Positions 10,137 through 31,639 of a stretch of DNA of 32,000 bases are shown in pieces. The position numbers were made by a program, and so were the translations under genes. The notes beneath the pieces were generated by a model. It worked only from the letters and a program-made list of their open reading frames with translations, was not told where the DNA came from and did no database searches. How positions within the stretch are numbered: position 1 is the first letter of the stretch; each line of letters starts with the position of its first letter. This DNA is from an uncultured Chloroflexia bacterium (GTDB lineage Bacteria; Chloroflexota; Anaerolineae; Anaerolineales; Anaerolineaceae): the NCBI GenBank assembly GCA_963704755.1, contig OY969938.1, forward strand, positions 1,620,001 through 1,652,000, written 5' to 3'.

Positions 10137-10168
10137 CTTTGGGCGGCCGTGTCGACGGCCGCCCAAAG
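10137..10168 (-). promoter_or_regulatory. intercistronic hairpin between the solute-binding-protein and ATPase genes (13-bp GC-rich stem CTTTGGGCGGCCG / CGGCCGCCCAAAG, 6-nt loop)
   Basis: An exact inverted repeat read directly. It lies 19 nt after the solute-binding-protein stop and 29 nt before the ATPase start. Confidence 0.6.
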
Positions 10169-12833: not shown

Positions 12834-12866
12834 TTTTTGCAGCAGTTCATTTGAAACTGCTAAATA

Positions 12867-12900
12867 TTCACACGAGCCAGGCAAGCCTGGCTCGTGTGAA
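12867..12900. terminator. perfect hairpin between convergent genes (TTCACACGAGCCAGGC / GCCTGGCTCGTGTGAA)
   Basis: An exact 15-16-bp inverted repeat between the HTH remnant (+) and the OsmC gene (-). No clear U-tracts on either side. Confidence 0.55.
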
Positions 12901-12917
12901 TGTACGTCCCGTAAAAC

Positions 12918-15544: not shown

Positions 15545-16555
15545 CTAGATATTCGTATTCTCTCTCTTGAAAATCACGTTCATCAAAACCGCGGTCAGGA
15601 TCAGGACACCCCGTACGATCCCTTGGGATTGCGAATTTACACCCATCAAGACCAATCCATTCCCAATGACGGATGTGAACAGCACACCAATCAACGACCC
15701 GAGCATCCCGCCCCGCCCACCGGTGAGCGAAGTGCCGCCAATGACCACCGCGGCGATTGCCGAAAATTCCAAACCATCGGCGACTGCCCCGGTAGAAACA
15801 CCAAGCCGTGAACAGTACAACAAACCGGTTAGCGCAGCCAAAAAGCCGTTGATCCCAAATATCGAGGCGCGCACGATTTTTAGATTGACGCCAGATGCGA
15901 ACGCGGCTTTGGCATTACCGCCAATGGTGTAGATGGACCGGCCGTAAATTGTGTTTTTGGCAATATAGGTAAAAACTAACAACAAGACAAAAGCAATGAT
16001 CACCAGGTACGGTATACCCGCCACGCTTCCGGAAGCAATATCCGTAAAACCCGCCGGCGCCTTGTCGAGCGGAATGGGAATATTGTTAGAAAGCACTTGT
16101 TTTAAGCCATCGTAAATGCTGAACAACGCCAATGTGGTTACAAATGAAGGTACGTTGAAGCGCGCCCGGAGATAACCGCCCCCAAAAGACACCAGGGTTG
16201 TGGTTAGCAGAACCAGTAATACCGAAACCATGAAGGGAAAATTATGCCGTGTGGTGAGCCAGCCCAGCAGAACCGCGCTAAACCCTGTGGCCATACCCAC
16301 ACTGACATCAATTTCGCCCGCGATGATCACCAGGGTCATGCCCCAGGTCACGATCCCCAGAAAAGCGGCCGACCGCAGAACATTGATAAGGTTTGGGGAA
16401 GTCAGAAACGCCTTGTTTTGTGAAGCAAAAAAGGCCCCGAGAGCAAAAAGTGCGATCAGCAGGCTGATAATGTTGAGATTTTGCTGGACAAACCCCTTAA
16501 ATCCCGAAAAATATTTACCGTTCGCAGAAGTACCTTGATTCACGCTATCGCTCAT
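15545..16555 (-). CDS. sugar ABC transporter permease (RbsC-type; the only permease gene in locus 2)
   Basis: Polytopic protein with GEIDVSVGMA and GGTSLTGGRGGMLGS. ATGA overlap with the ATPase stop at 16552..16555. Confidence 0.9.
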   Translation of the reverse strand: MSDSVNQGTSANGKYFSGFKGFVQQNLNIISLLIALFALGAFFASQNKAFLTSPNLINVLRSAAFLGIVTWGMTLVIIAGEIDVSVGMATGFSAVLLGWLTTRHNFPFMVSVLLVLLTTTLVSFGGGYLRARFNVPSFVTTLALFSIYDGLKQVLSNNIPIPLDKAPAGFTDIASGSVAGIPYLVIIAFVLLLVFTYIAKNTIYGRSIYTIGGNAKAAFASGVNLKIVRASIFGINGFLAALTGLLYCSRLGVSTGAVADGLEFSAIAAVVIGGTSLTGGRGGMLGSLIGVLFTSVIGNGLVLMGVNSQSQGIVRGVLILTAVLMNVIFKRENTNI

Positions 16556-19440: not shown

Positions 19441-20241
19441 GTGAACGAACCTAACTCAACAACTCCGCGATTCTTGCTCCCTGAAGAACGACGCAAAATC
19501 ATTCTAAAGTTGCTCCGAGAACAAGGTAGTGTTCGCACCACAACGCTTGCCGAACAAATGGATGTAAATCCTGCCACAGTCCGCCGCGATTTACGCGACA
19601 TGGCTGCCGAAAAGGAATTACGGCTGGTGCATGGGGGAGCGACGATTGCATCTTCAGTCCAACCCGTAACGGTTAATTACGATCTGGACGTCAAACGGTC
19701 TGCAAATATCGAAGCAAAAATGCAGATTGCCAAAAAAGCCCTGGACCTGATCCACGACGGGGATATTATCGCCCTGACATCCGGCTCTACTGTGGAGTTG
19801 ATTGTCCAGAACCTTCCCCGCGATTACAAATCGCTGACGGTGGTGACCCTCAGCCTGAACGTGGCCTGTCTGGCTGCCAAGTTTCCATATATTAAGTTGA
19901 TGATCCCCGGCGGTGAGCTATTCCGCCCGTCGCAGGCGATCGTCGGCCAGGATGCAGTCCATTTCATTTCAACCTTACGCATCGATAAGGGCTTCTTCGG
20001 GGCGCAAGCGGTGGACGTCAACGCCGGGTTTACCGAATCCAACCATTTGGAAGTGGCCACCAACCGGGAACTTTTCAATGTTTGCACCCACCAATACCTG
20101 GTCGCCGATTCTTCTAAATTTGGGCACGTGGCCCTGGGGCATATCTGTGATCTCGACGAGTTCGATGGCCTGATAGTGGACGATAACGTGCCCAACTCGA
20201 TCCGTTCCTGGGCCGTGGCGACCGGCGTAGAGCTAATCTAG
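19441..20241 (+). CDS. DeoR/GlpR-family transcriptional regulator (locus 2)
   Basis: HTH EERRKIILKLLREQGSVRTTTLAEQMDVNPATVRRDLRDMAAEKELRLVHGGA plus a DeoR C-terminal domain. GTG start. Confidence 0.92.
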   Translation: MNEPNSTTPRFLLPEERRKIILKLLREQGSVRTTTLAEQMDVNPATVRRDLRDMAAEKELRLVHGGATIASSVQPVTVNYDLDVKRSANIEAKMQIAKKALDLIHDGDIIALTSGSTVELIVQNLPRDYKSLTVVTLSLNVACLAAKFPYIKLMIPGGELFRPSQAIVGQDAVHFISTLRIDKGFFGAQAVDVNAGFTESNHLEVATNRELFNVCTHQYLVADSSKFGHVALGHICDLDEFDGLIVDDNVPNSIRSWAVATGVELI

Positions 20242-20312
20242 GGGTTGCTGCGGATCGATAATTCCGATCAACCCACATTATTGACGAACTACAATTTAGA
20301 AGAGGCGTTTAT

Positions 20313-21119
20313 ATGGATGCACGAGTTGGAAAACGGATCAGGCTTGGGCGAATATTCCGCCCGGCAGACAAACGCTGTGTAGCGATCGCGTATTCGCACG
20401 GCGTTCTGCTCGGCCCCGGAAAAGGGTTCCAAACCTTTGAGCAAATGGATCAGATGATGGAAATTTTTCAAGGCGCGGACGCCGTGATGCTCTCACCCGG
20501 GATGCTCGACCAATTGGACGGTCACTTCGTGGGACGCGATCACCCGGGCCTGATCGTCCAGGCTGACTGGCAAAATGTAGGCCGGGCCAGAGACGGGGCT
20601 TTTGCGGGCCAAGGCCTCTCAGTTCCTATGCTCACGGCCGAGCAGGCCGTGGCCGCCGGCGCCGATGCGATCATGACCTATCTATGGATGGGCGGGGATA
20701 ACCCCGGGCTGGAAGCCGGCGAAGTGGCCAGAAATTCCGCCTACGCCCGCGCCTGTGAAGCGGCTGGCCTGCCATTGTTGATCGAATTGCGCGGGTTGGG
20801 CCAGGAAAACGGCAAGGACGGTAAACCCGATCTCGAATTGCTCAAATTCCATACCCGCGTGGCGGCTGAATTAGGCGCCGACTTCATTAAAACTAAATAT
20901 TCCGGCTCGGTCGAAACTTTTCGCGAGGTCACTTCGCAGTGCCCGGTGCCCATCCTGGTCGCCGGCGGCTCGCGTCTCTCGACCGATGCGGATGCGCTCA
21001 AGCTGGTCGAAGATGTCATTGCCGGCGGCGGCGCGGGGGTTGTGTTTGGCCGCAACATCTTCCAATTTGACGATCCTTCCAGCATGTTGAAGCGGATCCT
21101 CGAAAGGGTACACTGCTGA
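20313..21119 (+). CDS. class I aldolase of the DhnA/FbaB/LsrF (DeoC/LacD superfamily) type
   Basis: 268 aa; ..AVAAGADAIMTYLWMG.., ..ELGADFIKTKYSG.. (candidate Schiff-base Lys), ..PVPILVAGGSR.., ..GVVFGRNIFQ... GAAGAGG precedes the ATG. Confidence 0.8.
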   Translation: MDARVGKRIRLGRIFRPADKRCVAIAYSHGVLLGPGKGFQTFEQMDQMMEIFQGADAVMLSPGMLDQLDGHFVGRDHPGLIVQADWQNVGRARDGAFAGQGLSVPMLTAEQAVAAGADAIMTYLWMGGDNPGLEAGEVARNSAYARACEAAGLPLLIELRGLGQENGKDGKPDLELLKFHTRVAAELGADFIKTKYSGSVETFREVTSQCPVPILVAGGSRLSTDADALKLVEDVIAGGGAGVVFGRNIFQFDDPSSMLKRILERVHC

Positions 21120-21156
21120 GAATTAGGTGCCTTTTTACGGATGTAAAAGAGGTTTA

Positions 21157-22734
21157 ATGGCTAACCAATATATCTTGAATGTGGACGTTGGTACATCCAG
21201 TACGAAAACAACCCTGTGGAGCGCGGAAGGCAAGACCGTCGCCGAAGCCTGCATCGCCAATGTGCTCCACCGCCCCGACCCGGTCATCGCCGAAATTGAC
21301 GGCAATGCCTGGTGGCAGGTAGTGTGCCAGACCATTCATAGCGTGATCGCCCAATCAGGCGTCCAGCCAAACGAAATCGCCGGGATCGGCGTGGATGGGA
21401 TCGGCCTGGCGCTCGTCCCAGTGGACCGAAATGTGAACCCCCTTGCACCGGTGATGATCTGGCTCGACCGCCGGGCCAGCCTTGAGGCTGCCTGGCTGAA
21501 AAGCCTGCCCGAGTCGCAACACCTGCTGGAATTGGTCGCCAATCCCCTGGATGAATCCTACGTCACCCCCAAGCTGGTTTGGTTGAAGAATAACCATCCC
21601 GATATATTCGAGGCCACCTATCAATTCCTTGGCTCAACCGGGTTTATCGTTGCCCGCCTTACCGGTGAATTTACCTGCGATTACACCCAGGCTTACGCCT
21701 TTCACTTCTTCGACATGAAAAATGAGTGCTGGGATCCTCAAGCCGCTGAGACGGTGGGGGTTCCGCTGGACAAGATGCCGCGTTTGTACTCTCCTCACGA
21801 GGTGGTCGGCCGGGTTACCAGCCGGGCCGCGGCAGAAACCGGGTTGCGTCCGGGCATTCCGGTCATCGCCGGCTGCCTGGATGCAATCGCAGGGGCCCTG
21901 GGCGCCGGGGTGACCCGCCCCGGCCAGACCAACGAACAAGGCGGGCAGGCCGGTGGTTTTGGCATCAGTGTGGAGCGCATGATCGTCGAGCCGCGCCTGG
22001 TTTTCTCGCACCACCTGGTTCCGGGCCAGTACCTGCTTTCCGCCAGCACGGTAGGCGGCGGTGTGTTGGGCTGGTTCCACGATCAGGTCGAAAACAAACA
22101 CCCGGATCCGGTCAAACCGGGATGCTTTGAGGAATACAGCGCATCGGCCAGAACTTCTCCCGCCGGCGCAAATGGTCTGATCTTCTTGCCATACATGGCC
22201 GGAGAGCGCACCCCCCTTTGGAGTAACATCGCCCGCGGTGTATTTTTTGGGCTTTCCTACAGCTCAAGCCAGGCCGATATTTTACGGGCGATGATGGAAG
22301 GCTGCGCATTCGCGGTGTCCGACAACCTCGCTATCGCCGCGGAACATGGCGTTACGGTAACCGAGTTTCTCGGTTCGGGCGGGGCATCCAAAAGCGCCGA
22401 ATGGTGCCAGATCAAAGCAGATGTCTATGGGCTGCCGTTTGTGGTGGCCCAAAGAGCCGGCGGCGGTGAAGGCGGCAACAGCCTGGGCCTGTTCGCCATC
22501 ACCGCCCATGCCGTCGGCATTTTCGCCGATATCCAGGAATGTGTGAATACATTATTGCCCAACCGGCGGCTTTACGAACCCTCCGAAAAGAACCACGCCT
22601 TGTATCGTGAACTCTTCCAGGTTTATCGCAGTATTTCTCACAAATTAATGGCCGACTTCAGCACGCTCGATCAAATCCGAACCAGTTTTCAAGGCAAGAC
22701 AAGGGAGTTTAGTACCGATCCGAAAATTGCATAG
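21157..22734 (+). CDS. FGGY-family carbohydrate kinase (about 525 aa, long form)
   Basis: MANQYILNVDVGTSSTKTTLW (FGGY N-terminal motif), ..LPYMAGERTPLW.., ..GSGGASKSAEWCQIKADV... ATG 21157 is preferred because AGAGG lies 5 nt upstream. Confidence 0.9.
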   Translation: MANQYILNVDVGTSSTKTTLWSAEGKTVAEACIANVLHRPDPVIAEIDGNAWWQVVCQTIHSVIAQSGVQPNEIAGIGVDGIGLALVPVDRNVNPLAPVMIWLDRRASLEAAWLKSLPESQHLLELVANPLDESYVTPKLVWLKNNHPDIFEATYQFLGSTGFIVARLTGEFTCDYTQAYAFHFFDMKNECWDPQAAETVGVPLDKMPRLYSPHEVVGRVTSRAAAETGLRPGIPVIAGCLDAIAGALGAGVTRPGQTNEQGGQAGGFGISVERMIVEPRLVFSHHLVPGQYLLSASTVGGGVLGWFHDQVENKHPDPVKPGCFEEYSASARTSPAGANGLIFLPYMAGERTPLWSNIARGVFFGLSYSSSQADILRAMMEGCAFAVSDNLAIAAEHGVTVTEFLGSGGASKSAEWCQIKADVYGLPFVVAQRAGGGEGGNSLGLFAITAHAVGIFADIQECVNTLLPNRRLYEPSEKNHALYRELFQVYRSISHKLMADFSTLDQIRTSFQGKTREFSTDPKIA

Positions 22735-22735
22735 C

Positions 22736-22774
22736 GTGTTTGTTTTTAGCGGCTTTGCCGCCAAAAACAAACAC
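22736..22774. repeat. palindromic hairpin, family copy a (GTGTTTGTTTTTAGCGGC-ttt-GCCGCCAAAAACAAACAC)
   Basis: 18-bp arms with one mismatch, starting 2 nt after the kinase stop codon (22732..22734). The T-run is 5' and the A-run 3' of the GC core. Confidence 0.75.
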
Positions 22775-22843
22775 TTTAAAATATTTTTCGGATCGAATTC
22801 CCGGTCGATCTTCGGAACGATAAATATCAGTGGAGGTTTTTTA

Positions 22844-23893
22844 ATGAAAGCAGCAATCTTGGAAGCCCAAAGGGTGATGAGTTATCAGGAGGTTCCTACC
22901 CCTACACCCCTGCCTGGGAATGTACGGTTACAAATTAAAGCGACATCGATCTGCGGGTCAGATATTAAGCGCTACAAATCGGGCCACCGGCTGTACCCCA
23001 TCATCCTGGGGCATGAATGTGGCGGCGTCGTCGATCAGGTTGGGGAAGGCGTCGACCAGAGCTTGCTTGGAAAACACGCCTCCGTGGCTCCCTTGATTCC
23101 CTGCTTCAACTGCGTCGAGTGCGACCGGGGATATTATTCCGCCTGCCCCAATTATTCCTTTATCGGCTCACGCCAATCCGGAAGTTTCGCCGATTACGTC
23201 GAACTGCCGGCCACGAACCTCTTCGTAGTTCCTGACCAGATTCCTTTCGAACACGTGGCCATGATCGAGCCCTCCACCGTGGCCAGGCACATGGTTGCCC
23301 GGGGTGACTTTGTCGCCGGTGAAACGGCCCTCGTTTTCGGAGTCGGTTCGATCGGATTATTGGTGGTGCAATGGCTGCGAATTTTAAAGGCCAAATTGAT
23401 CATTGGCGTCGATATATCGGATGAAAACTTGCAAACCGCCCGCAAGCTGGGCGCACACGCCACGATCAATCTCTTGCGCGAGGACGTGGTCAGCGAAGTA
23501 CGCAAACTGACCGGAGATGGCGTCGATGTATCTTTTGAAGCGGCCGGCGTGCCCCAAACCCTGGAAAAAACCATCCCGGTTACCCGGCCGCGTGGAAGAG
23601 TGGTTCTGGCCGGTAACCAGCCGGTCGATAAATCGATCCAGTTATCCTTTATCGAGAACCTGATCCGCCGCGAGTTGAGCGTCAGGGGCAGTCACATGTC
23701 CTTCTCCGCGCCTTTCCCGGGCCACGAATGGACCGATACCGTCACCGCCTTGATGGACAAAAGCCTGGATATGGACACCTTGATCACCCATCGTTTCTCC
23801 CTGGCCGAAGCGCCCGAGGTCTTCGCTAAAATCGGCGATGGCTCCTTGAAGTTCTGCAAAATCATGCTTCAACCCGAGCACGCCAATCAATAA
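22844..23893 (+). CDS. Zn-dependent MDR-family dehydrogenase, galactitol-1-phosphate 5-dehydrogenase (GatD)/sorbitol-dehydrogenase-like
   Basis: SICGSD and GHECGG (catalytic Zn), CFNCVECDRGYYSAC (structural Zn), GVGSIG (NAD). Blocks PLIPCFNCVEC..FIGSRQSGSFADY..IEPSTV and EAAGVPQT..FPGHEW recall E. coli GatD from memory. GGAGG lies 6 nt before ATG 22844, and the track start at 22727 runs through the hairpin. Confidence 0.85.
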   Translation: MKAAILEAQRVMSYQEVPTPTPLPGNVRLQIKATSICGSDIKRYKSGHRLYPIILGHECGGVVDQVGEGVDQSLLGKHASVAPLIPCFNCVECDRGYYSACPNYSFIGSRQSGSFADYVELPATNLFVVPDQIPFEHVAMIEPSTVARHMVARGDFVAGETALVFGVGSIGLLVVQWLRILKAKLIIGVDISDENLQTARKLGAHATINLLREDVVSEVRKLTGDGVDVSFEAAGVPQTLEKTIPVTRPRGRVVLAGNQPVDKSIQLSFIENLIRRELSVRGSHMSFSAPFPGHEWTDTVTALMDKSLDMDTLITHRFSLAEAPEVFAKIGDGSLKFCKIMLQPEHANQ

Positions 23894-24113
23894 TCTCTCT
23901 TTCAGTACGCTATAGCCCATTTTTGGAACACCTTTTTTTACCCAAAACGGACCGCGGTCCCTTTGGTTAGTTAGCTGCACCTTCTTTCAGGAAAAAACAC
24001 CCGAAAGAACGCCATCTGGCGGCAGATTACCGGTTTAGCCATTAGTTCACAATTCACCGGCAGGAAAATCGCCGGTTGCCCGGCTGGAAATCATTGACCA
24101 CACCTTGGAGATT

Positions 24114-24689
24114 ATGATGATCGATTTACCTTTTACCTACACGCTCTCGTTGCCAAAAGTTGTCCCCTCCCGGGTGGACAACTACATCACCAGAAAGTTA
24201 TCCAATCTGAAAGGCATGTTCAACGATGAGGCCGCCTATGACCAGATGCTGGCCGGCGGCGATCAACTGGTCTATGAAGTTTACGAGATCCAACGCCCGG
24301 AGGTCGAAGGCGAAATGCTGATGGGCATTTCAGTCGTTCACCCGGGCAGGGTTGGCGATGAATTTTTCATGACCAAAGGACATTTCCATTCCGTCCTTGA
24401 GACTTCGGAAGTGTACTATTGCCTCCGCGGCGAAGGCTACATGGTCATGGAAACGCCTGAAGGGGAAACCTCTGTGGAAACGCTGACCCCAGGCACAGTT
24501 CTGTACGTACCTCCCCGTTGGGCGCATCGCTCCGTGTGCACTTCCAGGCAGGATGACCTGGTCACACTTTTTGTCTATCCGGCCAACGCCGGCCACGATT
24601 ATGGCACGATCGAACGGACAGGTTTTCGCAAGCTGGTCGTCGATAGTGAAAACGGCCCAAAAATCATTGACAATCCCCGCGTCCGCTGA
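24114..24689 (+). CDS. cupin-type glucose-6-phosphate isomerase family protein (archaeal-type cPGI)
   Basis: TKGHFHSVLETSEVYYCLRGEGYMVMETPEG and VPPRWAHRSV match the cupin PGI signature known from Pyrococcus/Thermococcus (TxGHxH...ExY; PPxxxH). GGAG lies just upstream of ATG 24114/24117. Confidence 0.8.
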   Translation: MMIDLPFTYTLSLPKVVPSRVDNYITRKLSNLKGMFNDEAAYDQMLAGGDQLVYEVYEIQRPEVEGEMLMGISVVHPGRVGDEFFMTKGHFHSVLETSEVYYCLRGEGYMVMETPEGETSVETLTPGTVLYVPPRWAHRSVCTSRQDDLVTLFVYPANAGHDYGTIERTGFRKLVVDSENGPKIIDNPRVR

Positions 24690-24784
24690 CCGTCGGGATG
24701 GTCCGGCTCGAAAGAAATTGCGCGAATATCGAAATCGCAAGCGCATCCCGAACTGAAGCCCTGTAACCTGAGGAAGAAATCATC

Positions 24785-25741
24785 ATGAACACTGAACCCT
24801 ATCCAATTGTAAAGAAAACAGTGCCTACTTTCTATTTTATCGGCGTGACGACCGGGAAATCCTCCATCATGAAAGTCTTTCCGCAGTGGATGAAGGTTTT
24901 AGGGAAAGAAGATGTCGTCATCGAAGGCGTGGATTGCAAGATCCATGACGACCCCGAAAAATACCGGGCCGCCGTCGCCCAAATCAAGAACGACGCACTT
25001 TCCTTGGGGGCTCTCGTTACCACCCACAAAATTGACCTGCTCACTGCCGCCCGGGATATGTTCGACTATCTCGACCCATACGCGGCCATAACCGGTGAGG
25101 TTTCCAGCATCTCCCGGCTGGACGGGCGGCTGGAAGGGCACGCCAAGGATCCCATTTCCTCTGGAGCCAGCCTGGACGCCATCGTCGGCAAAGATTATTT
25201 TGCCCGCACCGGCGCTGAGGTGCTCTGCTTTGGCGCCGGCGGCTCGGCTATAGCGACTTTGCTGCACCTGATGAATAAAAAAGATAAAGCGGACCGCCCG
25301 CGCCGGTTTACTTTTGTGAATCGCTCCCAGTGCCGCCTGGATCACGCCCGGGAAATGGTGAACACCCTCGGCACGGATATCGAAATCGAATACGTCTGCA
25401 ACGCCGACCCGAAAGTCAACGATCAAATCCTGGAGAAATTCCCTCCCAAGAGCGTCATCATCAACGCGACCGGCATGGGTAAAGATACCCCCGGTTCTCC
25501 CATCACCTGGGAAGGGCGATTCCCGGTCGAGAGCATCGCCTGGGAGTTCAATTACCGCGGCGAGCTGGATTTCCTCCATCAAGCCCTGGCGCAGGCGGAG
25601 AGCCGCTGCCTGAAAGTCGAAGACGGCTGGCTTTATTTTGTGCATGGCTGGACCCAGGTGGTTTCCCAGGTTTTTCATTTCGACCTCACCCCCGAGTTAT
25701 TCGCAGCGCTCAACCGGGCGGCTTCCGCCGTCCGAGGATAA
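24785..25741 (+). CDS. shikimate/quinate dehydrogenase-family (AroE-like) oxidoreductase
   Basis: 318 aa; ..FYFIGVTTGKSSIMKVFP.., ..GALVTTHKID.., GAGGSAIAT (Rossmann), ..INATGMGK... GAGGAAG precedes the ATG. Confidence 0.75.
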   Translation: MNTEPYPIVKKTVPTFYFIGVTTGKSSIMKVFPQWMKVLGKEDVVIEGVDCKIHDDPEKYRAAVAQIKNDALSLGALVTTHKIDLLTAARDMFDYLDPYAAITGEVSSISRLDGRLEGHAKDPISSGASLDAIVGKDYFARTGAEVLCFGAGGSAIATLLHLMNKKDKADRPRRFTFVNRSQCRLDHAREMVNTLGTDIEIEYVCNADPKVNDQILEKFPPKSVIINATGMGKDTPGSPITWEGRFPVESIAWEFNYRGELDFLHQALAQAESRCLKVEDGWLYFVHGWTQVVSQVFHFDLTPELFAALNRAASAVRG

Positions 25742-25817
25742 TCAATAGATTTTCTGCATGGGACTGGCGGATAGGGATGAACTTCTCGCGAAAGCTCGAT
25801 GAAAACAAAAATATTCT

Positions 25818-25899
25818 GTTACTGCTCAGGCAAGGTCAGAAGGTAAGCGTGGTTTATTATTTTTTGCGTACTCCGCACGCAAAAAATAATAAAAACACC
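25818..25899 (+). repeat. family copy b: 14-nt box GTTACTGCTCAGGC + 17-nt spacer + hairpin (25849..25899)
   Basis: The perfect 17-bp core TTTATTATTTTTTGCGT / ACGCAAAAAATAATAAA has apex C-TCC-G and the right arm ends ATAAAAACACC. The box is identical to the reverse complement of 31561..31574. Confidence 0.75.
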
Positions 25900-25972
25900 T
25901 CGTTCTCCTGCTGTAGCTAAGTAGTTACAAAATCCCTGCATCTATATTAGGAACAATGAAAGGTTGGCTACG

Positions 25973-26668
25973 ATGTTATTAACAGCTTCTGATGTCGCCA
26001 GGATGATCGACCTCTCCTGTGTTCGCACCATATCCGATAAAGCGGATATCGAGGAAATGGTTTCGGCCGCTCGCAGCTATGGATTTGGGCAGGTTTCTGT
26101 GCTGCAATGTTTTATTCCCTACACCCGCCAGCTTTTGGCAGGTTCCGCGGATATCCACGTCGTTGGGAACGTGAGCTTTCCTTCGGGCTCAGATACTACC
26201 TCGATTAAGGTGTGCCAGGCCAAAGAGATGGTCTCCGCCGGCTGCGATGAGATCGACACCGTGATGAACATTGGTAAATTAAGGTCTGGCGACCTGGCCG
26301 AAGTTGAGCAAGATGTTCGTGCAGTGGTCGAAACCGTTCGCCCCATACCTGTCAAAGTCATCATCGAATATTCGGTACTCACCCCCAGCGAAGCGGAACA
26401 GGCCTGCAATATTTGCTTGAAGTGCGGGGCATCCTTCGTTAAAACCGGTTCCGGGTGGATTGGCCGCGGCACGACTGCCGAGGATGTCCATTTTATAAAA
26501 TCGATCGTCGGGGATCAAATCAAGATCAAAGCTTCGGGGGGTATTCGCGACCTGGCTACCCTGGTCGCGATGTATAAAGAAGGTGCCAGGCGGTTCGGCG
26601 TCAACCTGAGGAGTGGGATCAGCATCGTTGAAGAGTGCCGATCTTTGGGTACAGGCGTGACGATCTGA
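25973..26668 (+). CDS. deoC: DeoC-family aldolase (deoxyribose-phosphate aldolase-like)
   Basis: ..MIDLSCVRT.., ..NVSFPSGS.., ..GCDEIDTVMNIG.., ..ASFVKTGSGW.. (Schiff-base Lys context), ..IKASGGIR... The track start is TTG 25964; ATG 25973 lies 9 nt after AAAGG. Confidence 0.8.
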   Translation: MLLTASDVARMIDLSCVRTISDKADIEEMVSAARSYGFGQVSVLQCFIPYTRQLLAGSADIHVVGNVSFPSGSDTTSIKVCQAKEMVSAGCDEIDTVMNIGKLRSGDLAEVEQDVRAVVETVRPIPVKVIIEYSVLTPSEAEQACNICLKCGASFVKTGSGWIGRGTTAEDVHFIKSIVGDQIKIKASGGIRDLATLVAMYKEGARRFGVNLRSGISIVEECRSLGTGVTI

Positions 26669-26788
26669 ACCGTTTACTCCACCCGGCAGAGCCAAAATTG
26701 CTGAATAGAGAACATCGAATCAAAGACCTGTAAGTTTACTGTAATACCTTGCAATTAAAAGCTCTGCCGGTGGCACGAAGAAGAAAGG

Positions 26789-26857
26789 ATTAGAGGGGTG
26801 TTTTTATTGTTTTTGGCAGGCTTCGCCTGCCAAAAACAATAAAAACACCCCTCTAAT
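26789..26857. repeat. family copy c: 33-bp perfect palindromic stem with TTC apex
   Basis: ATTAGAGGGGTGTTTTTATTGTTTTTGGCAGGC-ttc-GCCTGCCAAAAACAATAAAAACACCCCTCTAAT, with no mismatch, followed by TTTTT. Confidence 0.85.
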
Positions 26858-26928
26858 TTTTATCGATAGAATTTCACCAGCCACTCCTTCAGGTGCCGGG
26901 AACATAATAATGCATCTGGAGTAATTCG

Positions 26929-27190
26929 ATGGCCAAAATTGTGTTTTTCAACGTTCCGGCCCATGGCCACATCAACCCCACCTTACCGTTGGTTGCTGAA
27001 CTCGTGCAGCGGGGCAATGAGGTGATCTATTACGCCATGCCGGAGTTCCAGGACAAAATCCAGAAAACCGGTGCCCGGTTCAGGGCCTACGATTTACATC
27101 GTTACGAGCAGTTTCACCCCAGTGCGAACTCGCTGCGGCGGGTACCAGCTCGCCGCCGATATGATCGAAGAATTTGTGCAGCACCACTAA
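26929..27190 (+). pseudogene. internally deleted MGT-family (macrolide/YjiC/OleD-like, GT1) glycosyltransferase remnant
   Basis: The N-terminal about 65 aa, MAKIVFFNVPAHGHINPTLPLVAELVQRGNEVIYYAMPEFQDKIQKTGARFRAY, match MGT N-termini. At 27137..27190, in another frame, GGYQLAADMIEEFVQHH-TAA matches the extreme MGT C-terminus (compare YjiC ..GGAERAAAEIEAF..). The roughly 300 central codons are missing. Confidence 0.7.
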
Positions 27191-27211
27191 CGAACCACTC
27201 CAGCACATATT

Positions 27212-27280
27212 AAAAAAATCCCTGAAAACAAGGTATTTGCCGGGACTTCGTCCCGGCAAATACCTTGTTTTCGGGATTTT
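27212..27280. terminator. bidirectional intrinsic terminator between convergent genes (about 30-bp stem with one bulge, TTC apex, A7 upstream and T4 downstream)
   Basis: AAAAAAATCCCtGAAAACAAGGTATTTGCCGGGAC-ttc-GTCCCGGCAAATACCTTGTTTTCGGGATTTT. It has canonical A-run/stem/T-run polarity on both strands. Confidence 0.75.
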
Positions 27281-27294
27281 ATGTACAGTAACCC

Positions 27295-27805
27295 TCAATT
27301 TTTGCAGAACGTTTCGTCCACCAGCGCCTGAACAGATGCGTTCAAAGGAACACCATTTTCCTGCATGGCCGTCAGGGTCTGGCAGGTTTCTTCCCGCAGG
27401 TAGGGAAAGTCGTTCACCTTGGGCGCTGTCGAGCGCAGCCAGTCCTCATCGCCCAGCACCGCGTAGGCTTGAATGAACGGCAGCCACTCCACCCGGTCGA
27501 TGGGATGATAGCCGTTAGCCTCAGCCTGTTGGTCCAAATCAGCCACTTGCTGGTAATCGCCGGTCTGTAAGGCCAGTTCGGCTTTTTCGTAATAGTAGCA
27601 CCAGGTATGGGCCGGCTCGGCGCCAAATAACGCCGCCGGCGGGGTCTGCGCGGGTCCGCTAGTTTCGATCGTGCCGATGTGGGAATAATCTGCCAGGGCC
27701 AGCACCTGGTCGCCCTCTCCCACGGATATGCGCGGCCAGGCCGAATCCAGGGCGTGTACGCAGGAGCCGTCCGTGGGTTGGCTGAGGATCAACAGGCGGT
27801 CGAAG
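27295..27805 (-). CDS. probable C-terminal continuation of the membrane protein (TPR-like soluble domain) in a +1-shifted frame
   Basis: This is track ORF 27295..27885. Its first about 25 codons look off-frame, and from ..DFDRLLILSQPTDGSCVHALD.. onward it is protein-like (..WCYYYEKAELALQTGDYQQVADLDQQAEANGYHP..). There is no ATG or SD for an independent start. Confidence 0.5.
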
Positions 27806-29338
27806 TCAGAACTCGCTGGTATGTGAGCGGTATTCCTGTGCGCGGTCCTTACCCAGCAAGATGGCTTCGCTGGTCTCGGCGTCATTAGACAATACCGATA
27901 TCTTATAGTCCACCGGGGTCTGGGCAGATTTTTGCGGGTAATAGATCAGGTTGGCCGGCCCATTGCCCACATCCACGCCATCTTTCTCCACCAGGCCCGG
28001 ATAATCCACCAGCATGGTGGTCTTCTCTTGCAGCTCTGGCGCACGCCAACTGACCTGCCACCAGAAGGTGGCAATCGTGTTCATTTCATCGACGGCCTGC
28101 ATGGCCAGGCTGTTGTGCGTCAATATTGCCAGGCAGACCAGCAGCGCGATCGCAGTGCTGCGGGTGAGGCCTTTTTGCAGCCGGAAGAGCAGCCCGCCGA
28201 TAAAGACCGCAGCGACCAGGGACGCCGGCAGCGCGTAATGCGAATAAGCGCTGAAAACCACCTCGCGGTTGGCCATCACCACCGGTAGGACCCCCATCAC
28301 GCCGCCAATCAAGCCAAGCCATAAGGCTTCACCAGACCAGGAATTTTCGGGTGTTCCCGCGCTTTCCCTTCGATCCTTGCGGAAATAACGAAAGGCCGCA
28401 AACAGGGCAACCAGGCCAAGAGCCCCAAGCCCAAAGGCGACCAGGAATTCTTTTAGCCGCAGCTTGAAGAATTCATCGTAAAACGGCGTGACCCAGGCCA
28501 TCAGCAGAGTATTCAGGGTACTTTGCCCCAGGCGCAGCAGCCACCACATCCCATTCTGGACCGGAGAGGAAAGCAAAGTGCCTAACTGAACGCCGATATC
28601 CGTCTCTTTGCGGGTGTTTTGAAAGATGAACACTCGCCAGACCAGAAAACCCAGCGGAATGGCCACCGCAATGACCCAGGCGCGCAGTGATCGCCAGACC
28701 CTGGACAGGAATGAATCCACTTGCCCGCGGTTGACCATCAGGTATACGCACAGGAAACGAAAAACCTCCATGCCAATGGCATAATCGACCAGGGCAATGT
28801 ACGCCCAGCCGGTCAAAATCGATGCGACCCACAGGGCGGACTTGCTCCATCCAGACCGGGCCTTGATCGCCCGCACCGTTAAAGCGATCGAAAGCACCTC
28901 CAGCGCCAGGCTCATAATCATAGGCTGGTATTCGTAGCCGGCTACCCACCACCAGTAGCCGGGATACAAGACAAACAAGAGCGCCATGACCCAGGACGCA
29001 AAACGCTGCTGCGGCCAGATCAGGCGAAACAGCCACAGCGCAGCCAGGGCCGCCAGCATCCGCCAGGCAAATTCACCCACGTGATAAGGGAGTGGGGCAT
29101 TGCCAAACAGGTTGAAATACGCCTCGAAGACATACCCGCGCGCGGGCCGGTCGATCTGGAACATCTGGTGATAAATCGAAGCGCCACCCAACTGACCGTC
29201 GGTCGCATAATACCAATCATCCTGATAGAGGGTTAAATGGGTCACTTGCGGCAGGTAAGTTACCCCAGCCAGAACCAGAATCAAAATACTTTCGATGATC
29301 CACGAACGAAAACGTATCGTTCTATCTAAAGCAGCCAT
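27806..29338 (-). CDS. large polytopic membrane protein, tentatively GT-C-fold (ArnT/PMT-like) glycosyltransferase; the frame appears broken at its 3' end
   Basis: About 12 or more hydrophobic segments, an Asp pair in the first loop (LYQDDWYY), and a C-terminal soluble part (..LVDYPGLVEKDGVDVGNGPANLIYYPQ..). The ORF ends at TGA 27806..27808, but the protein-like text continues in the next frame. Confidence 0.7.
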   Translation of the reverse strand: MAALDRTIRFRSWIIESILILVLAGVTYLPQVTHLTLYQDDWYYATDGQLGGASIYHQMFQIDRPARGYVFEAYFNLFGNAPLPYHVGEFAWRMLAALAALWLFRLIWPQQRFASWVMALLFVLYPGYWWWVAGYEYQPMIMSLALEVLSIALTVRAIKARSGWSKSALWVASILTGWAYIALVDYAIGMEVFRFLCVYLMVNRGQVDSFLSRVWRSLRAWVIAVAIPLGFLVWRVFIFQNTRKETDIGVQLGTLLSSPVQNGMWWLLRLGQSTLNTLLMAWVTPFYDEFFKLRLKEFLVAFGLGALGLVALFAAFRYFRKDRRESAGTPENSWSGEALWLGLIGGVMGVLPVVMANREVVFSAYSHYALPASLVAAVFIGGLLFRLQKGLTRSTAIALLVCLAILTHNSLAMQAVDEMNTIATFWWQVSWRAPELQEKTTMLVDYPGLVEKDGVDVGNGPANLIYYPQKSAQTPVDYKISVLSNDAETSEAILLGKDRAQEYRSHTSEF

Positions 29339-30105
29339 ATTAGATTTTTTCTCGAAACAAACAGGGTTTGGATGTTCGCGGCATTCAGGAACAATTCGGT
29401 CGGATACCCACTAAAGCCTGAATGCGAACGCCTCTCGATTATAACATTCCGACGATCTGCTCCGTTTGGTTAACGGATTAATGGCGCAAAAGGGTCGTTT
29501 ATCCACCCAATTCATAATCATTGATTATTTTTATTGATTTTCTAAGAATCTTATAAAGAAGTTATAAAGGGATTTTAAAAGTATTCCGCCGCCCAGTATG
29601 CTATAGTAATTTCACGTTAGATTGGTGACAACAAAGCACCTTCACAACCAGGGAATGAACATTCCCCATCACAAGTAATCACATTGAAAATCATCATCTC
29701 GGACCAATCTGGTTATCCGTAGAATTAGCACTTGAACCCCGAAAATTGTGGCTGATTCACCCCCATTGGTCAGTTTTGATCCAGTAGGCCACGCGAAAGA
29801 CAACTAAAACTGCAGAAAGAACGCCTCCCAACGAATTTGGAGGTGTGCTTAAACGCGTCTGTACTTCAGACCCCGGCAATAATGCTTCAGACGCCCTGTA
29901 CAGGTTTACACAAATTTTCCGCAGGTAATTCGCATCCGGATGTCGAAATGGCGGAGCATGCCAAGAACCCTCACATCACTAGCCGAACCAAGGCAAGAAA
30001 ACAAACCACAAATAATTCACAGTAACAGGAGAGCAACGTATTCAACATTATTGGCAATCGGTTTCAAATTCTCACATCCACCATTCTTCATAAGGAGCAA
30101 TCTGT

Positions 30106-31077
30106 ATGAAACAGAAATTTTCTTTTCGTATTTTGGCTTTAGCACTGATCCTAGTGCTGTTTGCCGGTGTGGCCTTCGTTGGTGATGTAGCCGCCGACCA
30201 GAATACACCCCAATCCGTTGGGACGGCGTTTTCCTACCAGGGGAAGCTTTACGAGAGCGCCACACCTGCTAACGGAACATACGACTTCCAATTCACGTTG
30301 TTCGGCCAACAGAATAGCGGCAGCGCAATCGCCGGCCCAATTTCGAAAAATGATGTCGAAGTAAATGATGGCCTCTTTACGGTCAGCCTGGATTTTGGCG
30401 CGAACAGTTTTAATGGCGGTGACCGCTGGCTGGAAATCGCTGTACGCCCTGGAAATGAAACCGGTTTTTACACCACCCTCGTTCCTCGCCAGCAAATTTC
30501 CCCCACCCCTTACGCCATTTATTCCGATACGGCCGGTAAAGTGGACTGGAGCGGCATCCAGAATGTGCCGGCCAGCCTGGCCGATGGCGACCAGGATACC
30601 ACTTATACCGCTGGGAATGGGCTCAACCTGACAGACACTCAATTCTCTCTGGCTTCGCACCTGAATGTGACCGGCATGGCTGCGCCTTCCGACACGGTTC
30701 AGCTGGGCGACGTTTACAAAAACAACCAGATCATCGCCTGGGCAAAAGTTCAGGCCAATGGTTCGCTGGCTTCCGACGGCTTCAATTTTGGGATCCAATC
30801 GGTAACTCACCAGGGTACCGGGGATTATCTGATCAAATTGGACGTATCCGTGCCCGATGGCGGGTTCATCGCCCCGGTTGTTTCTCCAGAAGTGGACTAT
30901 GCTGATCTCACTCAACCAACCCCTGCATTAACAGACATCCCCATCGCCGTGGTGGACCAGTTAGGCGATATCCACGTAACTTCGAACCAGTTTGGGGTGT
31001 ATATGTTCGACGCAACGGGAGAGTTTGTTGATAATGACTTCATCGTCATCGTAACGGGCGGCGGAGTTCTCCCCTAG
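30106..31077 (+). CDS. secreted protein of unknown function with a conserved FxYQGxL...PANGxYDFxFxL...NGLFTVxLDFG...RWLEIxVR N-terminal module
   Basis: Signal peptide MKQKFSFRILALALILVLFAGVAFVGDVAA. AAGGAG lies 8 nt before the ATG. The mid-section DWSGIQNVPASLADGDQDTTYTAGNGLNLT is typical of fibre/adhesin-like hypothetical proteins (memory-based). Confidence 0.8.
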   Translation: MKQKFSFRILALALILVLFAGVAFVGDVAADQNTPQSVGTAFSYQGKLYESATPANGTYDFQFTLFGQQNSGSAIAGPISKNDVEVNDGLFTVSLDFGANSFNGGDRWLEIAVRPGNETGFYTTLVPRQQISPTPYAIYSDTAGKVDWSGIQNVPASLADGDQDTTYTAGNGLNLTDTQFSLASHLNVTGMAAPSDTVQLGDVYKNNQIIAWAKVQANGSLASDGFNFGIQSVTHQGTGDYLIKLDVSVPDGGFIAPVVSPEVDYADLTQPTPALTDIPIAVVDQLGDIHVTSNQFGVYMFDATGEFVDNDFIVIVTGGGVLP

Positions 31078-31087
31078 GAGGGCAGCC

Positions 31088-31387
31088 ATGAAGACCTTCA
31101 ATTTCGGGCGGGTTAGTCTAATCTTCGTGGTCGTCGCTCTGGCCTTGCTGCTGGTCACTACCGCTGCTTTTGCTGCCGGGAGCATGGAAATTCCCTGGTG
31201 GTCGGCGACGGGCAGCGGCGGAACGGCAATGACAGGGGGCAATTACTCCGTTTCGGGTATTGCCGGGCAGCCATACGCCGGCGTCGCCATGTCCGGCGGG
31301 GCGTTTTCACTGGAAAGTGGTTTCTTACACGGAGCCACGGCCACCATCGCAAACTTTTTCATTTACTTACCCCAAGTGGTCCGTTAG
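31088..31387 (+). CDS. small secreted protein (99 aa) with a GGxYxxxGxxGQPxAGxxMSGGxFxLxSGF motif and a hydrophobic FIYLPQVVR tail
   Basis: GGAGGG lies 6 nt before the ATG, 10 nt after the upstream stop. Signal peptide VSLIFVVVALALLLVTTAAFAAG. Confidence 0.7.
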   Translation: MKTFNFGRVSLIFVVVALALLLVTTAAFAAGSMEIPWWSATGSGGTAMTGGNYSVSGIAGQPYAGVAMSGGAFSLESGFLHGATATIANFFIYLPQVVR

Positions 31388-31492
31388 TATCGCATCTTTC
31401 CGAAGTGGGGATGCATTTCGTCCGATCCGAGTGCGTCCCCACTCCTTTAATTCCTTGGCGGAGGTAACTACTCAGCTACCGCAAAAGAGAAC

Positions 31493-31574
31493 GTGTTTTT
31501 ATCGATTTTCACGTGCTCCGCACGCGAAAATCGATAAAAACACCTCTGATTTCCGAACCAGCCTGAGCAGTAAC
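31493..31574 (-). repeat. family copy d (inverted orientation): hairpin 31493..31543 + 17-nt spacer + 14-nt box
   Basis: GTGTTTTTATCGATTTTCaCGTGC-tcc-GCACGcGAAAATCGATAAAAACAC (24-bp arms, one mismatch). GCCTGAGCAGTAAC at 31561..31574 is the exact reverse complement of 25818..25831. Confidence 0.75.
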
Positions 31575-31590
31575 CACCGGATAAAAAAAC

Positions 31591-31639
31591 GAATTTGAGG
31601 TATGGATACGGTCGATGACCGTATCCATACCTCAAATTC
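31591..31639 (-). terminator. 23-bp perfect hairpin (GAATTTGAGGTATGGATACGGTC-gat-GACCGTATCCATACCTCAAATTC) with T7 only on the minus-strand side
   Basis: An exact inverted repeat. Plus-strand A7 (31583..31589) precedes it, so it has intrinsic-terminator polarity only for minus-strand transcription. Confidence 0.55.

Follow-up and report, generated by a model that had tools for sequence, protein, structure and literature searches.

REP sequences, mobilised by RAYT proteins, are short intergenic palindromes found mostly between unidirectional or convergent genes, with complementary stem variants within families and loops of 2-4 nt, and REPINs form longer composite hairpins. REP stems measure 5-13 bp within a palindrome of 20-40 nt, one end of which carries the unpaired tag GTAG or CGTC (PMC3733652). 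The ERIC or IRU elements of Enterobacteria and Vibrio are imperfect palindromes of ~127 bp, non-coding and patchy in distribution, which occupy transcribed intergenic sites in either orientation. Correia or NEMIS elements of Neisseria are similar to miniature inverted-repeat transposable elements (MITEs); their terminal inverted repeat is 26 bp long, they duplicate a TA target, and they contain an IHF site and promoter elements. They are found inserted beside genes, with which they are co-transcribed, and the long hairpins of the RNA serve as substrates for RNase III. A further type of structure is the bidirectional intrinsic terminator, an intergenic GC-rich stem-loop in the order A-run, GC stem, T-run, whose complementary homopolymer runs extend the helix. 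The present study concerns four hairpins, a to d, in a 32,000-nt stretch of the genome of an uncultured Chloroflexia bacterium of the family Anaerolineaceae (assembly GCA_963704755.1, contig OY969938.1, positions 1,620,001 to 1,652,000), hereafter the window. They are members of a family with copies in other genomes, and probably represent a new family of small non-coding palindromic insertion elements of the MITE/REP/ERIC kind, non-terminating and co-transcribed with operons, in some Anaerolineae (Chloroflexota). No description of a dispersed repeat family in Anaerolineae was found in the literature.

Direct inspection of the window confirmed the four near-perfect hairpins that a first-pass annotation had proposed at the following positions:

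22736-22774, no strand: hairpin a, GTGTTTGTTTTTAGCGGC-TTT-GCCGCCAAAAACAAACAC, an 18-bp stem with one A.C mismatch
25849-25899, no strand: hairpin b, GTGGTTTATTATTTTTTGCGTAC-TCC-GCACGCAAAAAATAATAAAAACACC, 17 perfect pairs around a 7-nt loop
26789-26857, no strand: hairpin c, 33/33 perfect pairs, loop TTC
31493-31543, no strand: hairpin d, GTGTTTTTATCGATTTTCACGTGC-TCC-GCACGCGAAAATCGATAAAAACAC, 24-bp arms, 96% complementary

Besides the foot GTGTTTTTAT/ATAAAAACAC, they have in common a GC apex capped by a triloop, a 5' arm containing T-runs and a 3' arm containing A-runs. The 10-mer GTGTTTTTAT has five exact occurrences in the window, each of them a hairpin foot. The shared foot of the first-pass annotation is confirmed; on the 5' side of b a degenerate GTGGTTTAT is found in place of GTGTTTTTAT, and 31 nt separate one foot from the other in each of b, c and d. 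The window copies begin with (G)GTGTTTTT on both arms, the foot of the family as a whole being (G)GTGTTTTT(AT), and T5 and A5 tracts, as read from the sequence, lie ~9-10 nt apart. Hairpin a is a short form in which the TTATT/AATAA segment is missing and each foot is 5 nt shorter than in the other copies. The triloops had been given correctly as TTT, TCC, TTC and TCC in a, b, c and d, that of b requiring an alternative pairing in which the TCC loop is closed by a C-G pair followed by an A.C mismatch. Folding z-scores against shuffled sequences range from -5.3 to -12.1, the extreme belonging to hairpin c (-62 kcal/mol, z -12.1). Since the hairpins fold far more stably than shuffled sequences do, and both the 10-mer foot and an outer box described below recur, a chance origin of the hairpins is excluded.

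Hairpins b and d are the centres of longer units. When the plus strand of b is aligned with the minus strand of d, homology appears on both sides of the hairpin and over 111 nt, with ~30 nt of common non-hairpin flank per side, and both flank alignments (including b+R versus d-R) outscore 300/300 shuffles. The components of these units, together with a wider palindrome around a, are as follows:

25818-25928, plus strand: unit b, 111 nt, made of left box, 17 nt, hairpin, 14 nt and right box
25818-25831, plus strand: outer box GTTACTGCTCAGGC of unit b, exact copy
25913-25928, plus strand: second outer box of unit b, GTAGCTAAGTAGTTAC, an imperfect inverted copy of the first box
31464-31574, minus strand: unit d, 111 nt, homologous to unit b and inverted
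31561-31574, minus strand: outer box GTTACTGCTCAGGC of unit d, exact copy
31464-31479, minus strand: second outer box of unit d, the minus strand reading GTAGCTGAGTAGTTAC
22716-22795, no strand: extended imperfect palindrome around a, CCGATCCGAAAA ... TTTTCGGATCG, -39.6 kcal/mol, z -8.0

The box GTTACTGCTCAGGC is present exactly twice in the window, each time 17 nt from its hairpin, although only ~0.09 chance matches would be expected even with 2 mismatches. The first-pass annotation was right about this 14-nt box, about its spacing and about the occurrence of the unit in both orientations, b(+) and d(-) being homologous on both flanks, but its asymmetric unit of ~82 nt is wrong: a second box with the consensus GTAGCT(A/G)AGTAGTTAC, found at 25913-25928 and as the reverse complement at 31464-31479, lies on the opposite side of the hairpin and makes the unit a 111-nt quasi-palindrome. 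The terminal boxes GTTACTGCTCAGGC and GTAGCTRAGTAGTTAC of b and d are imperfectly inverted relative to each other. As a whole, both units are imperfect palindromes that fold as long interrupted helices, the minus-strand folds being more stable than those of the sense strand. Copies a and c have no outer boxes. A similarity between the flanks of a and c (AATATTTTTCGGATCGAATT versus AATTTTTATC-GATAGAATT) was marginal, with p ~0.02 before multiple-test correction, and was not relied on. Hairpin a had been located after the stop codon of the FGGY kinase gene, and its 39 nt do lie past that TAG; its wider palindrome, however, overlaps the last 19 nt of the kinase open reading frame (ORF) and thereby covers the last codons and the stop itself at 22732-22734.

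Copies outside the window, which the first-pass annotation had asked to be sought, were found by pattern and covariance searches in L099, L101 and L103/L104. A scan of metagenome contigs with a strict 28-nt pattern gave three loci (L099, L100 and L101), two of which, L099 and L101, are from Anaerolineae according to UvrC and LeuC homology. The hairpin at 1208-1276 of L099 has 33-bp arms and the same foot as c, GAGGGTGTTTTTAT (GAGGGTG), and stands between convergent genes, and that of L101, whose core GTTTTTAGCGGC is identical to the inner core of a, stands between leuA and a small ORF preceding leuC. Locus L103, from the metagenome-assembled genome GCA_036382215.1, was reached via LeuC homology and not via the pattern. 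It has three hairpins of the T-run/GC/A-run design with the foot (A)GTGTTTTT or GGGTTTTT:

6343-6384 of L103: hairpin between ilvB and ilvN
18777-18820 of L103: hairpin
19556-19602 of L103: hairpin

The copy between ilvB and ilvN is kept, with two uncompensated differences, in L104, which belongs to the same species as L103, and a second hairpin of L099 (27-71) resembles the one at 19556-19602 of L103. The training set of a covariance model, R1, comprised b, c, d, L099 and L101. The training copies of the window score 60-62 bits (b), ~81 bits (c) and 74-76 bits (d), and the model also recovers a, which was outside the training set, at 36.6 bits, the three L103 hairpins at 30-33 bits and the second hairpin of L099. 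In the window R1 detected no copies beyond a-d, and in L096-L098, L102, L106 and L107 it gave nothing with E <0.01; loci L002-L090 are a poor negative control for this model, since the same outer 20 nt had served to select them, and it is the recovery of a and L103, together with the empty result in the six contigs just named, that is informative. The viral contigs contained no family copy and the plasmid collection no match to unit b. Judged by these searches, the family is real, it extends across several Anaerolineae lineages with 51-63% GC, and its distribution is patchy.

Two sets of matches were set aside. The third locus of the strict scan, L100, reached 55 bits with R1, but it is a ~290-nt foldback in a 39% GC, few-ORF, eukaryote-looking contig and was considered a chance match; its positions 1-290 (Ga0126336) form a near-perfect foldback with GTGTTTTTATCGCTTTTC...GAAAAGCGATAAAAACAC, probably an unrelated eukaryotic foldback or MITE. 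A loose pattern, GTGTTTTTATN{15,45}ATAAAAACAC, matched at least 94 loci in genome contigs from diverse, mostly AT-rich taxa; among the matches listed, inspection revealed mostly non-palindromic chance matches and no family member.

The insertion of the hairpins became apparent when the orthologous spacers were compared. The annotations of named DeoC and LeuC homologues read Chloroflexi, Anaerolineaceae, Anaerolineales or Anaerolinea. A Logan contig from an independent run (ERR11571143), 99.93% identical over 5.5 kb, contains a. The DeoC proteins next in similarity share 77-86% identity and are encoded, with the same genes, on contigs L096, L097, L098, L107 and L108. In these contigs the spacer that holds b measures at most ~26 nt, the genes even overlapping in L096, versus ~230 nt in the window. 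At the site of a, the genes for the kinase and the alcohol dehydrogenase (ADH) share a 4-nt ATGA overlap in L097 and L107 versus a separation of ~110 nt in the window, where the C-terminus of the kinase is ~13 codons longer than those of the relatives and reads into the element. No long hairpin was found at the orthologous a and b sites of L096, L097, L098, L107 and L108. A comparable replacement is seen where leuA ends when L101 and L103 are aligned: the hairpin block of L101 takes the place of ~19 nt and the leuA stop codon TAG is formed by the first three bases of TAGTGTTTTT. Since relatives with the same operons have no hairpins at the orthologous spacers, the hairpins are lineage-specific insertions. 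A 5.37-Mb relative, L102, carries a different and unrelated insert at the end of leuA.

The arms of the hairpins vary between copies, and their complementarity is actively maintained. In a covariation alignment of six independent copies, 90.8% of the cells are standard pairs, versus ~50% when the partner column is slid; changes on both sides occur in 11/27 pairs, and the observed covariation score was reached by no shuffle. Between units b and d, marked by their flanks as one homologous unit, there are four differences in the stem, and all of them (4/4) are compensated. This degree of pairing exceeds that of a neutrally decaying MITE, and points either to selection for a single-stranded fold, be it RNA or single-stranded DNA during mobilisation, or to a very recent amplification of distinct sub-families. 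As regards the strand on which such selection might act, the triloops contain only pyrimidines on the plus strand in 4/4 copies, though the flanks of b and d are inverted, an observation that with n=4 copies is only suggestive. Each of a, b and d has a single mismatch, A.C as read on the sense strand, that would be G.U only in the antisense reading; no sense-strand signal of G.U-based strand-specific selection was found.

All four copies are intergenic, as the first-pass annotation had it, and lie between genes of the plus strand. Copy a is located between the genes for the FGGY kinase and the Zn-ADH, and copy b between the shikimate-dehydrogenase-like (AroE-like) gene and deoC; copy c is found ~120 nt past the deoC stop, at the end of the deoC operon, and copy d between a 99-aa ORF (+) and an ABC-2 permease-like ORF (+). 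Whichever strand is read, the order is T-run, GC stem, A-run; as the two runs are base-paired to one another, the stem is never followed by a U-tract of the element. This polarity, correctly recognised in the first-pass annotation as the reverse of that of an intrinsic terminator, separates the family from the bidirectional terminators, as does the presence of copies inside operons. In a, b and d the U-tract that should come right after the stem of an intrinsic terminator is replaced by A-rich or mixed sequence; a terminator scan left a, b and c unflagged and flagged d weakly, on the minus strand only. After hairpin c the plus strand continues with TTTTTAT, and this copy may double as operon terminator. 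Hairpins of ordinary terminator polarity are also present in the genome, one at 27211-27285 and another at 31591-31639 on the minus strand, and as they coexist with a-d the reversed polarity is specific to this family.

How these elements relate to the described families can now be considered. Rfam 15 gave 0 matches at gathering thresholds, and its E-value mode returned miRNA-precursor models only, far below thresholds; neither this search nor the comparison with REPs, both suggested in the first-pass annotation, identified a described family to which the hairpins belong. With stems of 17-33 bp in hairpins of 39-69 nt they are outside the size of REP stems, their feet are symmetric, and there is no unpaired tag: GTAG is seen in two L103 copies only, where it is paired, and the TAG or GTAG before the foot in a, L101 and L103 is either paired or the stop codon of a gene. 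The family is therefore not REP in the strict sense. What it has in common with REPs is the palindromic intergenic repeat located mostly between unidirectional or convergent genes, the complementary stem variants and the loops of 2-4 nt. It does show the attributes of MITEs, namely a short non-coding unit that ends in terminal inverted repeats (the element is an inverted repeat throughout, and b and d have their boxes), dispersed copies in both orientations (b+ and d-, four copies in 9 kb), and presence or absence at orthologous sites, both among relatives at 77-86% protein identity and between L101 and L103. Hence, from the REP/MITE-like mobile palindrome that had been put forward, the mobile part is favoured by the copies in other genomes, the empty orthologous spacers and the inverted flanks of b and d, and the strict REP part fails on stem length and tag.

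The nearest counterparts of the 111-nt units in architecture are ERIC and Correia elements. With ERIC they have in common the imperfect palindrome of ~110-125 nt, the transcribed intergenic location in either orientation, the non-coding nature and the patchy occurrence; they differ in the host, an Anaerolineae member of another phylum, in the near-perfect central hairpin of 17-33 bp, the T-run/A-run arms and the GTGTTTTT foot, and in the existence of copies without boxes (a and c). This comparison is one of architecture alone, and we know of no sequence relation between ERIC/IRU and the a-d family. Like Correia elements they are MITE-like, with inverted ends and a place beside genes, and would be co-transcribed; the defined 26-bp repeat, IHF site and promoter elements of Correia are not evident here, and the TA beside c and L099a is ambiguous as a target duplication. 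Integron attC sites are dissimilar on inspection, as the feet GTGTTTTTAT/ATAAAAACAC are not R''/R' (RYYYAAC ... GTTRRRY), the flanking genes are of core metabolism and there is no integrase.

The explanation favoured here is that of an insertion element. Each copy is a long near-perfect inverted repeat with a conserved foot, T-runs, a GC-rich apex and a short loop, and in some copies (b and d) terminal inverted boxes extend it to the 111-nt unit. Mobilised presumably by a trans-acting enzyme encoded elsewhere, the element would land in short intergenic spacers, often at stop codons, inside operons and in either orientation. A stem with no U-tract after it on either strand would not terminate transcription and could thus persist in operons; if elements landing there in either orientation survive only when they terminate on neither strand, the reversed polarity would need no exotic mechanism. 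The surviving copies would be co-transcribed as RNA helices of 17-33 bp, a length typical of RNase III substrates, and these helices, acting as such substrates or as barriers to exonucleases, might adjust the expression of the flanking cistrons.

Several observations weigh against this explanation. The copies were counted in a 32-kb window of a 4.87-Mb genome, and all four are in its last 9 kb. Neither a transposase nor a Y1/RAYT domain was found among the ten window ORFs scanned and in the domain lists of the same genes, which are of metabolic and regulator type only, and no autonomous element with matching ends was found in the window or in the fetched loci. A clear target-site duplication was not found; the TA by c and L099a, self-complementary and part of the palindrome, is ambiguous. 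The family is missing from ~90 kb of other Anaerolineae loci. The empty sites, coming from relatives at 77-86% protein identity, show gain or loss, not recent transposition. Finally, near-perfect stems combined with ~30% divergence between copies fit selection on the hairpin better than neutral MITE decay, so that the origin may be purely functional.

A functional origin is what the main rival explanation proposes: the hairpins would be non-mobile cis-acting RNA elements arisen in place, intercistronic stabilisers or RNase III sites that set cistron levels. The strong compensatory variation, the stem length suited to RNase III, the position of all four window copies between same-strand genes and the pyrimidine-only triloops of the sense strand (4/4, despite the inverted flanks of b and d) speak in its favour. 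Nevertheless it appears unlikely, because the hairpins are absent from the orthologous spacers in every relative examined, the inverted flanks shared by b and d indicate duplication of a DNA unit and not convergence, the same foot and core motifs recur in unrelated operons and in genomes of 51-63% GC, and the mismatches of a, b and d, A.C in the sense, would be G.U only in the antisense.

It is improbable that the hairpins act instead at the DNA level, as double-stranded or cruciform binding sites for a dimeric DNA-binding or nucleoid-associated protein, with the feet GTGTTTTTAT-N31-ATAAAAACAC and the roughly phased T/A tracts serving for recognition or bending. The conserved foot, the fixed 31-nt spacing in b, c and d and the interval of ~9-10 nt between T5 and A5 tracts are consistent with such sites, but binding through the feet alone needs no compensatory changes along the inner stem, and copy a is without 5 nt of each foot. 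The contexts, moreover, are unrelated (sugar operon, leu and ilv operons, lipoprotein gene), and a GC-rich centre disfavours cruciform extrusion from duplex DNA.

Transcription terminators or attenuators, either hairpin-only ('I-shaped') or conventional, are hardly probable. The TTTTTAT right after c at the end of the deoC operon and the weak flag of d on the minus strand would agree with termination, whereas a, b and d have no sense-strand T-tract after the stem, ordinary terminator-polarity hairpins exist elsewhere in the genome (27211-27285), and some copies separate genes whose co-expression is obligate (ilvB|ilvN, and leuA|leuC, the latter with one small ORF in between), so that termination there would do harm. 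Least probable are independently transcribed small RNA genes, a proposal of the first-pass annotation in favour of which weak promoter-like hexamers lie inside a and c, since no copy has its own promoter plus terminator, the downstream terminator is absent, the hexamers match at only 9/12 positions and are mirrored on both strands by the palindromy, and Rfam gave nothing at its thresholds apart from generic miRNA-precursor-like matches below them. A promoter reading of a and c, with an UP-like T-tract, a -35 in the apex and a -10 in the A-arm, is weak on account of the same 9/12 matches and the same mirroring.

Other palindromes were encountered in the window and in the loci examined. The hairpin at 27211-27285, between the convergent ORFs 26929-27213 (+) and 27295-27885 (-), has 36-nt arms that are 86% complementary, a TTC loop, an A-run before the stem and a T-run after it. 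The palindrome at 31591-31639, 47 nt to the right of d, is a perfect one of 23 bp (GAATTTGAGGTATGGATACGGTC-GAT-...) preceded by A7, with a strong terminator score on the minus strand only, although both flanking genes are on the plus strand; its sequence is unrelated to a-d and may represent a second palindromic repeat family. Three intergenic GC-rich hairpins with 14-22-bp arms (2920-2967, 10137-10168 and 12864-12903) have no similarity to the family and are undetected by R1. In the other loci, tandem copies of GTCGGATTGGTGGTCTTCCAATCCGAC are found at 632-841 of L107, hairpins of the ACCACGAAGGGCACAAAG type at 15821-15907 and 16854-16913 of L102, and a 32-bp stem between leuC and leuD at 11491-11557 of L103. 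Several families of intergenic palindromic repeats thus seem to be common in Anaerolineae.

The neighbourhood of the copies presents features of its own. The sugar operon at 19441-26668 is rearranged with respect to L097 and L107: in the window the genes for DeoR, aldolase, FGGY kinase, Zn-ADH, cupin GPI, the SDH-like protein and DeoC follow one another on one strand, and in L097/L107 those sugar genes form two convergent blocks with an FAD-oxidase gene between them. The L097 and L107 loci also contain genes for GntR, PTE, a 2-hydroxyacid dehydrogenase and KDPG-aldolase, none of which is found in this part of the window. The 'AroE-like' protein of 318 aa (24785-25741) has no Pfam match at E <=0.001, and its orthologues in L097, L098 and L107 are likewise without recorded domain; within the sugar operon it represents a conserved, uncharacterised component. 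Further downstream, ~770 nt at 29339-30105 with a lower GC content of ~47% contain no ORF of >=80 aa and are flanked by genes for a 510-aa membrane protein (-) and a 323-aa secreted protein (+), neither with a Pfam match.

A more far-reaching and speculative possibility, itself unlikely, is that the family constitutes a clade-specific 'operon punctuation' module, a mobile hairpin whose G-GTGTTTTT foot would be recognised as single-stranded DNA or RNA by a dedicated protein, either a transposase or an RNA-binding factor. The reversed design would then have been selected both to let RNA polymerase pass in the two directions and to create RNase III-type sites, and the spread of the module would rewire cistron stoichiometry in Anaerolineae operons.

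Since REP, ERIC, Correia and BOX elements have made the general phenomenon familiar, the conceptual gain is modest. Anaerolineae, however well represented in sludge, sediments and peat, are genetically little studied, and the family would be useful as a marker for strain typing and assembly quality and could lead to its mobilising enzyme. It would also offer a natural test of whether elements inserted in operons are filtered for non-termination and, if processing by RNase III proves true, these hairpins would add a lineage-specific layer of operon regulation.

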